Source: Escherichia coli (GTDB lineage Bacteria > Pseudomonadota > Gammaproteobacteria > Enterobacterales > Enterobacteriaceae). Taken from it: a stretch of DNA of 64,000 nt. Shown piece by piece: positions 53,501 to 62,500 of this stretch (position 1 is its first letter; each line of letters starts with the position of its first letter). The stretch lies in assembly GCF_036507355.1 (NCBI RefSeq), contig NZ_AP027877.1, one strand, 5' to 3'. A program made the position numbers.

Positions 53501-56500
53501 TGGTGTGGTGATTGAAGTGACGGATAAGAAAAATACGCTGATTAAAAAAGGTGAGGTGCTATTTCGACTGGACCCGACGCGTTATCAGGCTCGGGTGGAT
53601 CGGCTGGTGGCGGATATCGTTACCGCAGAACATAAACAGCGGGCGTTGGGCGCAGAGTTAGATGAGATGGCGGCGAATACTCAGCAGGCAAAGGCCACGC
53701 GGGATAAATTCGCTAAAGAGTATCAGCGTTACGCACGTGGCAGCCAGGCGAAAGTAAACCCGTTTTCAGAACGCGATATCGATGTGGCGCGGCAAAATTA
53801 TCTGGCGCAGGAAGCCTCCGTAAAGTCATCGGCGGCGGAACAAAAACAGATCCAGAGCCAGCTGGATAGCCTGGTGTTGGGTGAACATTCTCAAATCGCC
53901 AGCCTGAAAGCGCAGCTCGCGGAAGCAAAATATAACCTTGAGCAGACGATAGTGCGTGCGCCGAGCGATGGTTATGTGACCCAGGTACTGATTCGTCCGG
54001 GTACCTATGCCGCGTCGCTGCCGCTACGTCCGGTGATGGTGTTTATACCCGATCAGAAACGACAAATCGTGGCGCAGTTCCGTCAGAACTCCTTGCTGCG
54101 ACTGGCTCCTGGCGACGATGCGGAAGTGGTGTTTAATGCTCTGCCAGGTAAGGTATTCAGCGGTAAGCTGGCAGCCATTAGTCCAGCCGTTCCCGGCGGA
54201 GCTTATCAGTCGACCGGCACCTTACAGACGTTAAACACAGCGCCGGGTTCAGATGGCGTTATCGCGACCATTGAACTGGATGAGCATACTGATTTGAGCG
54301 CATTACCAGACGGTATTTACGCCCAGGTGGCGGTCTACTCTGATCATTTCAGCCATGTCTCGGTGATGCGCAAAGTACTGTTACGCATGACCAGCTGGGT
54401 GCATTACCTTTATCTCGATCATTAATCTTCGCTTTCCGCCGCTTGTTCAGGCCGCAGTTGCTGCGACTGAGCAAGCTGGTGGCGAATTTCACGCAGCATT
54501 TCATCCAGCACATACTGGACCCGCCAGGGCTGGTATTCCCGTTTACGGAAGATAGCCACCAGATCCAGCCACCATTCATACGGGTGCTGAAGCAGGGCAC
54601 CAGCGTGCCGTCTTGCAGGTCGCTCTGCACACTTTTGTCTGGCGCAAACACAATCCCCAGGTGATTTCGTGCCAGCTCCAGCGCAGATTGCGTGTTGTCG
54701 CAAACGTAATTTCCCTTCACGCGATAATCCCGCACCTCTTTACTCCCGGCGACGTTGAAGCGCCAGATATTCGCGTCGTCGATCATCATCGAGTCGATCA
54801 AAATACAGGAGTGATGTTCGAGTTCGTCAGGACGGCTAATAGGATGTTTCTCAAGATAGCGCTGGCTGGCATAAGCGGTTACGGCATATTGTGTAATAAA
54901 ACTGGCAACCAGCGATTCATCTTTTGGTGGAGCGTAGCTGATTAAAACATCACAATCATCAGGAAATTCGACGCCTTCATAAAAGGCATTACGCTCAAGA
55001 TTGCAGGTTTTTAGCGATAAGGTTATATCACCGATATCTTTAATTTTATCGATTACATGTTTGGATAAATAGGTAATTATGCCGGTTGGGGCGTAGATGG
55101 TGACCCGACCACGTTTCTCATGCTTATAATCTGCAATAAAATTATTAAGCTGCTCGTTTCTGTCCAGCATGTCGTTGATGTACGGTAACAGCGCGGTACC
55201 AAAAGGTGTGAGCATCAGCTGCCGGGTGGTTCGGTCAAAGACTTTTAAACCCACTTTTGATTCAAAATCAGCAAGGTATTTGCTGACGTTGGCCTGTGCG
55301 ATGCCAAGTACAGTCGCGGCATGGCTGATATTTTCACTGGCAGCGATTACCGAGATAATTTTTAACTCCCGGTACTTAAGTTGTAATTTTGTCATCGCAA
55401 CAGCCCAATTATATATAATTTTATATATTACTATATAAATATGAATCTTGCACCGGAGAAATTGTAAGCATTACTATGCCGACTCTTTTTTATCTTATTT
55501 TAAAATGGAATACCGGACATGTTAATTAACCGCAATATTGTGGCGTTATTTGCGTTGCCTTTTATGGCAAGCGCAACTGCTTCTGAATTATCCATTGGTG
55601 CTGGTGCGGCTTATAATGAATCGCCTTATCGCGGTTATAATGAAAATACAAAGGCAATTCCCCTGATTAGTTATGAAGGTGATTCTTTTTATGTTCGTCA
55701 GACCACGTTAGGTTTTATTCTGTCGCAAAGTGAAAAAAATGAACTTAGCCTGACCGCATCCTGGATGCCGCTGGAATTTGACCCTGCCGATAATGACGAT
55801 TATGCCATGCAACAGCTTGATAAGCGTGATAGTACGGCTATGGCGGGGGTTGCCTGGTATCACCACGAGCGTTGGGGAACCGTGAAAGCCTCTGCAGCTG
55901 CGGACGTTCTGGATAACAGCAACGGCTGGGTGGGGGAGCTATCGGTATTCCACAAAATGCAGATAGGTCGTCTGTCGCTGACACCTGCGCTGGGCGTTCT
56001 CTATTATGACGAGAATTTCAGTGACTATTACTATGGCATTTCAGAGAGTGAGTCCCGTCGTAGCGGTCTGGCAAGTTATTCCGCGCAGGATGCCTGGGTG
56101 CCCTATGTCAGCCTGACGGCAAAATACCCGATAGGAGAGCACGTCGTATTGATGGCGAGCGCCGGATACAGCGAGCTGCCGGAAGAGATTACCGACAGCC
56201 CGATGATTGATCGTAATGAGAGTTTTACCTTTGTCACCGGCGTGAGCTGGCGTTTTTAATTCACCGGTGGATGTCGGTGCGGCTGGCCTACGCTCTCGCA
56301 CCGACTTGTATGCCTGATAAGACGTGTTAAGCGTCGCATCAGGCAATGTGCTCCTTACGTTGGATGCGGCGCGAGTGCCTTATCCAACCTACGGATGGCA
56401 ATGCTTTTCCTCATTCACCCAGATCCGCATTTCGCCTTCACCCCGGTTGGCCCAGCTAAACCATGGGATAAAGGTCAGAGTTTGCGTCTGGCGTTTGGCT

Positions 56501-59500: not shown

Positions 59501-62500
59501 CCAGCGACTTTGCGTCCGGTCGGCAATGACGCCCATCACCGGGTCGGAGATGGCATCAAACACGCGCAGTGCAATAAACAGCGTGCCAACCAGCGCCGGA
59601 GTTAATCCAAAAACGTCGGTGTAGAAAAAGGTGAGAAAATTCATGATCAGGCAAGTTATTACGGTGCCGCCTGCGTCACCCAGGCCGTAGCCTATTTTTT
59701 CCCGTACAGATAACGCATCGTCAATTTTACCTTTAGCGATATCAGCGGTAGTAATCGGTGTAGAGGTCATAGATATTCCTCGTGAATAGGGAGCAATTTT
59801 TAGTTTTATTGAAATGACCTGATTAATTCTGCCGTGAACGGGAATATCAACAAGGCGAGAAAAGAGTAAAAAAAGGTGACGATTCCGACCTGAATTTAAA
59901 AGTGTGAAATGGATCAGGTGAAATTAATATTTTTGATTAATAATCAAAAGGTAATGTGTTTAATCATTAATGAATAAGCGGGAAATTACATATCAATGCT
60001 CGAATTATCCATGACGTTACCGATTAAAGTGCAAAATGGTGGATTATTTATTTCCCGTGGCGTAGGGAGGCATCCTGCAAGGCGGCTGGAGTCATGGGAA
60101 ATTATCTTTGTCGAAAAAGGTCGATTAACGATTCAGGAAGAAGAACGGATATTTCTGGTCGATGCGGGAGAGAGTTTATTACTCTGGCCGAACCGACAAC
60201 ATGTTGGGGTGGAGGATTTTCCCGCCGATCTCAAATTTTACTGGCTGCATTTTGAGGTTAAAGCGCCGGACAACGACCCTCGCTGGCTTACTCATCTTAG
60301 CGTGCCGCAACAAACGAAGGTTGTCGATCCGCAGGCGCTGGTGGCCCTGTTTCGCCAGTTCTTAAGCGAACAGGAAAAGCATCAACGCACTCCGGCGCTG
60401 GAGTTTATTGTGCTGCTCATTTTGCAGCAGCTCACCCGTGACGCGCGTCTTGATGAACAGGCCGATGGCGCAGGCACCACCCTTGCCTGGAAAGCGCAGA
60501 AACTGATCCGCACGCAATATCATCGCCCGCTTTCTACGGCGCTTCTGGCCCGCGAGCTGTACTGCAATGCCGATTATCTTGGGCGCGTCTACCGGCGGGT
60601 GTTTCATCTGACGTTAACAGAAGCAATCCATCGCCAGCGGGTGCGCGAAGCCGAAAAGCTGTTAATTAGCGAAGCGCGATCGCTCACGGAAGTGGCGGCG
60701 TTGTGCGGGTTTAATGACGTTGGCTATTTCCGGCAGATTTTTCGCAAACACACCGGTTTAACGCCAGCAGCGTGGAAGCGGCGTTACAGCAAGGAACATA
60801 TCAATTCGTAGTGCCGTGTCGATTTCGCTTTCGACATCACGTCTGAAACAGGTGGGGGAGAAAAATCTCCTGAAACCACTGCGTGAAACCGCGCAGGCTA
60901 TTTCTAATGAACTGGGATTTACTGTCAGGGATGACCTGGGCGCGATCACATAACGCTTTGGACAAGTGCCAAAACTTTAACATTTCCTTCGTTGGATCAA
61001 AGCAGTAGGGACGCGCTCTCTGGCACTCTGCTGTTTTAGTGCAAAGGAGTGATCATGAACCGGTTTATTATTGCGGATGCGACGAAATGTATCGGTTGCC
61101 GTACCTGTGAAGTGGCTTGCGCAGTGTCGCATCAGGAGAATCAGGATTGCGCTGCGTTGTCACCAGACGAGTTTATTTCCCGTATTCGTGTCATTAAAGA
61201 CCACAGCTGGACCACGGCAGTAGCCTGTCATCAGTGTGAAGATGCACCGTGCGCGAATGTCTGCCCTGTTGACGCGATAAGCCGCGAACATGGGCATATT
61301 TTCGTTGAACAATCACGTTGCATTGGCTGTAAAAGCTGTATGCTGGCTTGCCCGTTTGGTGCGATGGAGGTCGTTTCTTCGCGCAAAAAGGCGAGGGCGA
61401 TTAAGTGCGATCTGTGCTGGCATCGGGCGACGGGACCGGCCTGTGTTGAAGCCTGCCCGACAAAGGCGTTGCAGTGCATGGATGTCGAGAAAGTGCAGCG
61501 GCATCGGCTACGTGTTTGAAACGTTTTCCGGCGTTTCTCAACGCCGGAATAGTGCGCTTTGTTTATGCCAGATGCGGCGTAAACGCCTTATCCGGCCTAC
61601 AAATTCTTCCAAATTCAATATATTGCAGAAATCATGTAGGCCTGATAAGCGTAGCGCATCAGGCAATTTTTAGTGACTTTCAGCCCAGGCTCTTTCTATC
61701 TCTTCCGCCAGAATCTTCACCCCCGCCTCAATTTTCTCCGGCTCTGGTACGTAGTTCATGCGCATACATTGATGCGTATGCGGCCACGGTTTATCCAGCC
61801 CTGGGAAGAAGTTGTGCCCCGGCACCATCAGCACGCCGCGTGCTTTCAGGCGCTGATAGAGCTGCTCGGTCGTAATGGGCAAATCCTTAAACCATAGCCA
61901 GAGGAAAATGGCTCCTTCCGGTTTATGAATCAGGCAGCGATCTTCCGGTAAATAGCGGCGAATGATGGCGATAGTTTCCTGAACACGCTGGTAGTAAAAC
62001 GGTTTGATGACTGTTTCAGACAGGCGCAGCAGATCGTTACGCTTAATCATTTCACACATCATCGCCGGACCAATACCGCCAGGTGCCAGGCTGATAATGC
62101 CGTTCATATTGGTGATGGCGGTGATGATTTTTTCATTGGCGATGATAATGCCGCAGCGGGAGCCAGGTAGACCCAGCTTGGAAAGACTCATGCACAGCGC
62201 GATATTCGGATTCCATAGCGGGCGCGCTTCACTGAAGATGATACCCGGGAACGGGACGCCATAAGCGTTATCAATCACCAGCGGAATGCCGTGTTGATTC
62301 GCCAGCGCGTCAAGCTTCAGCAACTCTTCGTCAGTAATCACATTGCCTGTTGGATTCGTCGGCCGGGAGACGCAAATCATCCCGGTTTCTTCGCCAATAT
62401 GCAGATGCTCAAAATCGACGTGGTATTTAAACTGGCCTTCAGGCAGCAGTTCAATATTCGGACGCGCAGAGACAAACAGATCTTCTTCCAGTCCGGCGTC

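Follow-up and report, generated by a model that had tools for sequence, protein, structure and literature searches.

A vertically inherited GPH symporter-GH127 glycosidase module with a divergent AraC-family regulator at the yiaT-ysaA locus of Escherichia coli, proposed to act on beta-L-arabinofuranosides

We analysed a 64,000-nucleotide stretch of Escherichia coli DNA (contig NZ_AP027877.1; the whole stretch is referred to here as the window) that carries, between yiaT and ysaA, a compact cassette of three genes: a two-gene operon in which a GPH-family cation symporter gene precedes a glycoside hydrolase family 127 (GH127) gene, and a divergently transcribed gene for a regulator of the AraC/XylS family (Table 1). 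The cassette is an ancestral, vertically inherited enterobacterial module and not an acquired island, and all three of its genes are under strong purifying selection. We think it probable on balance that the module imports and cleaves small beta-L-arabinofuranosides, with the substrate, inducer, coupling ion, promoter and operator as putative assignments. An earlier note on this DNA had described a 656-aa GH127-like enzyme, a symporter set apart from it by a 10-nt gap with an AAGGAG Shine-Dalgarno sequence, and a divergent AraC regulator, and had pointed out that the K-12 genes yiaJ to sgbE are missing between yiaT and ysaA. These features and the absence of yiaK-sgbE are confirmed here, with yiaT ending at 56259 and ysaA starting at 61049, and the family assignments hold: the enzyme has three GH127-type Pfam domains and every catalytic and zinc-binding residue of its characterised relative HypBA1, the symporter scores above the cut-off of TIGR00792, and the regulator has AraC_binding and HTH_18 domains. 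The yiaJ/plaR stub at 60813-60953 and the remnants of the cassette in K-12 had been overlooked.

The GH127 protein and its predicted active site

The GH127 protein comprises Pfam domains PF07944 (residues 20-435, E = 2e-110), PF20736 (446-540) and PF20737 (542-657). It aligns over the full length with a beta-L-arabinofuranosidase of Geobacillus stearothermophilus (4QJY; 779 bits, 53% identity over 645 aligned positions) and with Bifidobacterium longum HypBA1 (3WKW; 504 bits), and matches other GH127 structures, from Bacteroides, more weakly (6EX6, 382 bits; 5MQO, 315 bits). HypBA1 is a retaining cysteine glycosidase with nucleophile C417, acid/base residue E322 and a Cys3-Glu zinc site formed by E338, C340, C417 and C418 (PMC8106489). 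In the alignment the predicted equivalents are C414 as nucleophile (within GCACCPPN), E318 as acid/base (within SGEAFT), and E334, C336, C414 and C415 as zinc ligands; all five residues are invariant in 71 orthologs, as are H134, H186 and H266, the counterparts in the alignment of HypBA1 H142, H194 and H270. The protein has neither a hydrophobic N terminus nor any transmembrane-like segment, and because no signal-like or transmembrane segment is present we place the enzyme in the cytoplasm. The best-supported predicted activity is that of a beta-L-arabinofuranosidase (EC 3.2.1.185), an enzyme that hydrolyses terminal non-reducing beta-L-arabinofuranosides.

A database cluster look-up returns the GH127 protein and the GPH transporter under a single number, 'cluster 1', with 13,276 members. 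The shared number seems to be an artefact of the output and to reflect no real relationship.

Organization of the cassette

The two operon genes lie close together, with a 10-nt spacer, GGAGCACAAG, between the symporter TAA and the GH127 ATG at 58359; the AAGGAG sequence overlaps the symporter stop codon and lies 6 nt 5' of that ATG. Translation of the two genes may well be coupled, and the 10-nt spacing is common to most orthologous loci (where the GPH open reading frame (ORF), stop included, ends at 7990 and the GH127 match runs from 8001). An alternative, longer GH127 ORF reaching up to 58383 would encode 664 aa. The divergent spacer between the symporter and regulator genes is 225 bp long and AT-rich (GC 0.35). 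Along the window the gene order is yiaW, yiaV, yiaU, yiaT, a pair of repetitive extragenic palindromic (REP) elements, GH127, GPH, the spacer, the AraC-family gene, ysaA, avtA and malS.

The symporter and the regulator

The symporter matches the GPH model TIGR00792 (TC 2.A.2) with 332.2 bits over residues 25-462 of 466 (cut-off 231.35) and has multiple hydrophobic segments. It falls below the cut-off of the substrate-specific models: 357 bits against 610 for YagG, 322 against 836 for PRK11462 (YicJ-like), 204 against 456 for MelB and 190 against 528 for the glucuronide transporter model. Aligned with MelB structures (133 bits), it keeps the equivalents of Asp55 and Asp59 and has Ser in the place of Asn58; in MelB these three are cation-site residues that bear on the coupling ion.

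The regulator combines an AraC-type cupin ligand domain (AraC_binding, residues 26-132, E = 1.3e-9) with a double helix-turn-helix (HTH_18, 184-263, E = 4e-19). Against the AraC equivalog model NF007860 it reaches 61.1 bits, with a cut-off of 208, and is only distant kin of AraC; its UniRef name, 'Arabinose operon regulatory protein', exaggerates the likeness.

Conserved blocks in the intergenic control region

Conservation in the divergent spacer was scored in an alignment of 60 species-level sequences as the share that have the window's base. Outside the blocks described here the spacer averages 51%. The putative sigma-70 promoter of the operon stands out, with means of 98% at the -35 and 94% at the -10 hexamer, and transcription is predicted to start near 59819 on the minus strand. 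Just upstream lies a 32-bp block that, from its position and by analogy with araI at araBAD, is a candidate site for the AraC-family activator. A CRP-like site follows, which averages 71% over its 16 bp and in which the TGTGA half-site and an internal GATC are nearly invariant across genera. It is centred about -91.5 from the presumed operon start. If GATTAATAATCA is the -10 element of the regulator gene, whose transcription is predicted to start near 59951 on the plus strand, it also lies about -41.5 from that start. A repeat search in the spacer found no direct-repeat family marking paired regulator half-sites.

As far as can be judged from sequence, these blocks would fit an araBAD-like promoter in which a weak -35 is preceded by sites for an activator and a CRP-like protein. 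At the araBAD and rhaBAD promoters an AraC-family activator overlaps the -35 and CRP binds near -92/-93; in the cassette, taking the predicted starts, the 32-bp block would lie at about -41 to -72, next to a weak -35, and the CRP-like half-site block would be centred near -91.5. The cassette differs from them in that its regulator is distant from AraC (61 vs 208 bits) and in that there is no clear pair of repeated half-sites.

Elsewhere in the window, a cluster of four sites that match the CRP consensus exactly or nearly so (TGTGATATCAATCACA is one of them) occurs at 43468-43644, 5' of a 637-aa ORF at 41411-43324 on the minus strand. In size and position this ORF agrees with mtlA and its multi-CRP promoter, and it is a candidate for that gene.

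Distribution across species and selection

A scan with the GH127 protein of a single genome from each GTDB species gave 80 loci at 70-96% identity, in Escherichia, Citrobacter, Klebsiella, Raoultella, Enterobacter, Leclercia, Lelliottia, Kluyvera, Kosakonia, Phytobacter, Pantoea, Buttiauxella and other genera, and also in Salmonella enterica subsp. diarizonae. The three-gene cassette is found in about 70 species of Enterobacteriaceae, and a regulator gene divergent from GPH-GH127 is seen in about 65 of the 80 species-level loci. Many of these occupy the same chromosomal site, between yiaT and either sgbE or ysaA: Citrobacter, Leclercia, Enterobacter and others have a yiaT homolog next to the cassette, and the site is also kept in Klebsiella and S. 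diarizonae. The three genes have a G+C content (0.53-0.55) near that of their neighbours (flanks 0.49-0.52), and no mobility genes were found in the cassette region of the window.

Ratios of nonsynonymous to synonymous substitution (dN/dS; Nei-Gojobori), calculated for the window's genes against eight species, are 0.02-0.08 for GH127, 0.03-0.09 for the symporter and 0.05-0.14 for the regulator. In the least saturated comparison, that with Escherichia sp. L006, dS is 0.43-0.63 and dN/dS 0.03-0.06. All three genes are thus under strong purifying selection.

These values bear on the idea that the cassette is cryptic or decaying in E. coli, that is, intact in sequence but silent or useless and heading for loss, which we regard as improbable. 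Over half of the complete E. coli genomes have lost the cassette, through at least three different deletions (K-12-type and B2-type among them), its promoter hexamers are weak, and cryptic glycoside operons such as bgl occur in E. coli. Against decay, selection is strong even in the comparison with Escherichia sp. L006, the catalytic residues are invariant, the promoter and operator blocks are conserved, and weak hexamers are usual at activator-dependent promoters.

Two further sets of homologs were noticed. Bradyrhizobium spp. (L076-L081) have GH127 homologs of 71-72% identity to the E. coli enzyme in unrelated contexts and with neither GPH nor AraC partners, which suggests transfer between Enterobacteriaceae and plant-associated alphaproteobacteria. 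Citrobacter gillenii and the Enterobacteriaceae gut isolate MGYG-HGUT-00110 have a paralogous second GPH and GH127 pair of about 70% identity to the proteins of the window, with no AraC match nearby (L084 8001-9950 and L085 6405-8360), in addition to the orthologous cassette (L010 and L030).

Differential loss of two adjacent modules within E. coli

To follow the locus within the species, window positions 56260-61050 were compared by megablast with 5,426 complete E. coli genomes, and the cassette was called at a coverage of at least 80%. It is present in 2,311 of them (43%), chromosomal every time, and four states of the locus can be described. In state A, represented by strain 510016 (L002), the order is yiaT, cassette, sgbE...yiaK, yiaJ, ysaA, so that a complete yia-sgb operon adjoins the cassette; about 1,885 of the genomes (2,311 minus 426) are of this kind. 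State B, seen in K-12 MG1655 and HB101, has lost the cassette and kept the yia-sgb operon, and its junction occurs in 2,461 genomes. State C has the intact cassette, a 141-nt 3' stub of yiaJ and then ysaA, with a junction present in 426 genomes; this window, PapRG-06-5 (99.9% identity) and O157:H7 (99.0%) belong here. State D, seen in one genome, that of B2 strain SF-468, has aldB abutting sgbE, with yiaW-yiaT and the cassette missing. About 650 of the 5,426 genomes fall outside states A-C.

The deletions can be traced in both directions. K-12 pseudogene ysaD (b4649) corresponds to window 56497-56686 in the GH127 gene (89.5% identity) and ysaC (b4648) to window 60708-60823 at the 3' end of the AraC-family gene (94.8%), and relative to the window K-12 lacks two segments, one of 4,021 bp (56687-60707) and one of 210 bp (56287-56496, the REP pair included), the latter with GGCTGG microhomology at its junction. 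For state C, window 56200-60823 aligns with L002 14941-19564 and window 60813-61100 with L002 28541-28828, from which we deduce a deletion of 8,987 bp in the window's lineage. This took sgbE, sgbU, sgbH, lyxK, yiaO, yiaN, yiaM, yiaL and yiaK together with the 5' 708 nt of yiaJ, and its junction, at 60813-60823, shows 11 bp of imperfect microhomology that include an exact GCCG core. The window's lineage kept the cassette and lost yia-sgb, and K-12 did the reverse: two adjacent, independent modules were lost differentially, and nothing was replaced.

The earlier note had placed the cassette, as an islet, 'in place of' yiaJ-sgbE, and this part of it is not sustained. A horizontally acquired islet that replaced yiaJ-sgbE in the window's lineage might be suspected from the presence of the cassette and absence of yiaK-sgbE here, from the REP elements on both sides, and from the variable presence of the cassette among E. 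coli. We consider it very improbable and have rejected it, as the cassette and a full yia-sgb operon coexist in the state A genomes, K-12 retains stubs of the cassette, the window's own yiaJ stub sits at a microhomology junction, the position relative to yiaT, sgbE and ysaA is shared across Citrobacter, Klebsiella, Enterobacter, Salmonella diarizonae and others, and there are no mobility genes and a G+C content like that of the flanks.

Some additional changes were seen in the genomes compared. SF-468 (NZ_CP012625.1 124709-150836) has an extra DUF4862 gene between yiaL and yiaM; in strain 510016 an IS1A insertion splits yiaV (L002 11261-13175) and yiaY is frameshifted, which strengthens our impression of the yiaW-ysaA interval as a hotspot for the decay of genes.

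A proposed pathway for beta-L-arabinofuranosides

In the pathway that we propose, the AraC-family regulator with its ligand, together with cAMP-CRP, would activate a weak sigma-70 promoter, placing it under catabolite control, and this promoter would drive the two-gene GPH-GH127 operon. The GPH-family cation symporter would import a small glycoside, and the cytoplasmic, zinc-dependent GH127 cysteine glycosidase would cleave its terminal beta-L-arabinofuranosyl residue to yield L-arabinose, which would enter the araBAD pathway, and an aglycone or second arabinose. The likeliest substrates would be beta-L-arabinofuranosyl di- and oligosaccharides, for example arabinofuranosyl-beta1,2-arabinose (Araf-beta1,2-Ara) of plant hydroxyproline-rich glycoproteins, and beta-capped arabinan fragments. 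To our knowledge E. coli has no secreted enzyme for such polymers, so that release of the substrate would fall to other organisms; with none encoded beside the cassette either, the enterobacteria would be scavengers or cross-feeders. Beta-L-Araf caps occur in arabinans, arabinogalactan and pectin (PMC7889515). The inducible uptake-and-hydrolysis pathway for a beta-L-arabinofuranoside-type glycoside that the earlier note had predicted is a reasonable one, strengthened by the catalytic residues, the purifying selection and the conserved promoter blocks. The note was also right to caution that the sequence by itself reveals neither substrate nor inducer.

Several considerations weigh against this proposal. 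At 53% identity to 4QJY the same specificity is likely but not certain, and the activity of the Geobacillus enzyme is itself taken from its PDB molecule name and from its citation in a review. The GH127 family covers at least three activities, namely beta-L-arabinofuranosidase, aceric-acid hydrolase and 3,6-anhydro-D-galactosidase, and is polyspecific, with 3,6-anhydro-D-galactosidases among its members (PMC5698469). The symporter is below every substrate-specific NCBIfam cut-off, so that the models leave its substrate unassigned. The neighbours of the homologs in Pantoea ananatis (L041) and Bradyrhizobium (L081), at loci that lack yiaT/sgbE synteny, offer no clue to the substrate, being unrelated genes (diguanylate cyclase, ABC ATPase, DapA, BamC, histidine kinase, peptidase). 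In the control region, a consensus sigma-70 scan of the 225-bp spacer gave no match, its hexamers being too weak, and the promoter is proposed because of cross-species conservation and not from such a scan; the CRP pattern alone is not significant, with 12 matches in the window at up to two mismatches and 25 expected, which leaves the conserved half-site as the support for this site; and the -41.5 and -91.5 positions are soft because the transcription start is assumed. Finally, a literature search that covered main texts and few of the subscription journals turned up no enzymological, genetic or expression work on the operon in any enterobacterium.

An alternative is that the same architecture serves a different substrate, through another furanoside or GH127 specificity (candidates are aceric-acid-type sugars, 3,6-anhydro-D-galactosides, and plant secondary-metabolite arabinofuranosides or aryl glycosides), or that the enzyme has an undescribed activity. 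The polyspecificity of the family and the unassigned symporter would allow this, NCBIfam has a separate model for aceric acid hydrolase, and a 12-residue loop of HypBA1 (about residues 34-48) is missing from both the E. coli and the Geobacillus proteins, so that the aglycone or +1 side may differ. We nevertheless judge it rather unlikely. The closest solved relatives, at 779 and 504 bits, are deposited as beta-L-arabinofuranosidases, compared with 315 bits for 5MQO, and even 5MQO, which we take to be the aceric-acid enzyme BT1003, carries the PDB label beta-L-arabinofuranosidase. The aceric acid hydrolase equivalog (NCBIfam NF049879) gives 453.6 bits, under half of its cut-off of 950, and does not support that identity; the three invariant histidines align with those of HypBA1; and carrageenan sugars are implausible for gut and plant enterobacteria.

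Relation to known systems

In B. longum an extracellular GH121 enzyme frees beta-Ara2 from hydroxyproline-rich glycoproteins, an ABC transporter with a beta-Ara2-binding protein imports it, and intracellular HypBA1 splits it (PMC8106489). The E. coli enzyme is of the same family and three-domain layout as HypBA1 and is predicted to share with it the Cys nucleophile, the Glu acid/base, the Cys3-Glu zinc site, the intracellular location and the use of an imported small glycoside. It differs in matching HypBA1 less well than it does the Geobacillus enzyme and in lacking the extra loop, and the cassette differs from the B. longum system in having a single GPH symporter, no secreted enzyme nearby and an AraC-type regulator.

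The closest solved relative is Ara127N of G. stearothermophilus T6 (4QJY/4QK0), which has identical motifs around all of the catalytic residues. Ara127N is reportedly encoded within a large L-arabinan utilisation cluster of this Gram-positive thermophile (Lansky et al. 2014), in contrast to the minimal three-gene module of E. coli.

The design of the cassette has parallels within E. coli. The melAB, uidAB, yicJI and yagGH each pair a GPH symporter with a cytoplasmic glycosidase, and at melAB the AraC-family activator MelR is transcribed divergently. The cassette shares the combination of symporter and cytoplasmic hydrolase, and its symporter has its top NCBIfam scores with the YagG subfamily and PRK11462, but its hydrolase is of GH127 and not of GH4, GH2, GH31 or GH43, its symporter is below the cut-offs of theirs, and the module is missing in K-12.

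Prior records and significance

In thousands of genomes RefSeq names the three products 'glycoside hydrolase family 127 protein', 'MFS transporter' and 'AraC family transcriptional regulator', and the K-12 annotation records the ysaD and ysaC stubs. GH127 has been counted as an accessory CAZy family in E. coli with clade-specific prevalence (bioRxiv 10.1101/2021.10.19.464957), and it co-segregates with epithelial invasiveness in isolates from inflammatory bowel disease (IBD), a statistical association (PMC11879602). In the literature searched, GH127 or DUF1680 together with E. coli or enterobacterial genera turned up only CAZy tallies and this one association study, and no mention of ECs4457, ECs4458 or ECs4459, the last being the O157:H7 Sakai ortholog of the GH127 gene, was found. 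For ysaC and ysaD, one E. coli paper came up amid unrelated hits, and nothing in its title, which concerns phage resistance, points to the function of the cassette. Of a routinely annotated, functionally characterised operon, which the earlier note had said would overturn its claim, we thus found the first half, routine family annotation, and not the second. The cassette is an uncharacterised member of well-known families of enzyme, transporter and regulator, with a well-known operon design, and it introduces no new principle.

That nearly half of E. coli (O157:H7 included) and most Enterobacteriaceae are dedicated beta-L-arabinofuranoside scavengers, or else have an enzyme of undescribed GH127 specificity, is a possibility that we put forward only tentatively. 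If the scavenger interpretation is true, Araf-beta1,2-Ara freed by bifidobacteria or other primary degraders from plant extensins and arabinans would be among the substrates, and presence or absence of the module would be an ecological trait in gut cross-feeding, in plant persistence and possibly in the link with invasiveness of IBD isolates (PMC11879602). The prediction, if correct, would extend E. coli metabolism to a carbon source derived from plant glycans, would assign a definite role to a presence/absence polymorphism that is common in the species, and would let the K-12 deletion account for the failure of the classic model strain to show the trait. The cassette itself is compact, with clean boundaries, and its conserved promoter blocks are direct targets for reporter and mutational tests.

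REP elements and flanking genes

REP elements, which form bacterial interspersed mosaic elements (BIMEs), had been reported by the earlier note on both sides of the cassette, and hairpin arms and tail motifs confirm them. The tail motif CTTATCMGGCCTAC matches at 56308-56321 (-), 56379-56392 (+), 61587-61600 and 61636-61649; in the whole window there are 11 matches, with 0.57 expected. The elements are imperfect palindromes with this motif, paired, and intergenic after convergent or terminal genes, and the second REP of the left pair overlaps the GH127 stop codon. Within the right pair there is a match to Rfam ES036 (CssrF; RF02751) at 61601-61643 (+), with 46.1 bits and a gathering score of 37.6, which is probably REP-derived sequence and not a dedicated small RNA gene.

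Table 1. Positions of the cassette, its control elements and its flanks in the window.
Feature	Position	Strand	Remarks
yiaT, MipA/OmpV family outer-membrane protein	55519-56259	+	ORF; annotated yiaT in near-identical record L001; left flank of cassette
REP hairpin pair, BIME-like	56308-56395		Between yiaT and GH127 gene; inverted repeats 56311-56345 and 56352-56395
GH127 gene, 656 aa	56389-58359	-	RefSeq start
GPH/GH127 junction	58360-58372	-	Stop TAA 58372-58370; AAGGAG Shine-Dalgarno 58371-58366; 10-nt spacer; read from sequence
GPH (MFS) cation symporter gene, 466 aa	58370-59770	-	First gene of two-gene operon
Putative sigma-70 promoter of GPH-GH127 operon	59826-59853	-	-35 TTGTTG 59853-59848; 16-nt spacer; -10 CAGAAT 59831-59826
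Conserved 32-bp block AGGTCGGAATCGTCACCTTTTTTTACTCTTTT (- strand)	59860-59891	-	About -41 to -72 of putative operon promoter; mean 84% conserved
CRP-like site TGTGAAATGGATCAGG	59903-59918	+	Pattern match, 2 mismatches
Conserved GATTAATAATCA, candidate -10 AATAAT (59939-59944) of regulator gene	59935-59946	+	Mean 83% over 59935-59944; putative function
AraC/XylS-family regulator gene, 271 aa	59996-60811	+	Divergent from GPH-GH127
yiaJ/plaR 3' stub, 141 nt (IclR-family repressor of yia-sgb operon)	60813-60953	+	IclR pseudogene lacking N terminus in annotation of L001 and L005
ysaA, 4Fe-4S ferredoxin-type protein	61049-61519	+	ORF; annotated ysaA in related records; right flank
REP pair (BIME)	61587-61649		3' of ysaA; inverted repeat 61587-61601 / 61635-61649; exact tail motifs

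Beyond yiaT, the yiaU gene for a LysR-family regulator (54349-55395, minus strand) has a 1-nt deletion near 54591, TTT to TT, relative to PapRG-06-5 and K-12. It shifts the frame of about the last 56 codons and gives an ORF of 348 aa instead of 324, and could be either a real pseudogene or a homopolymer sequencing error.

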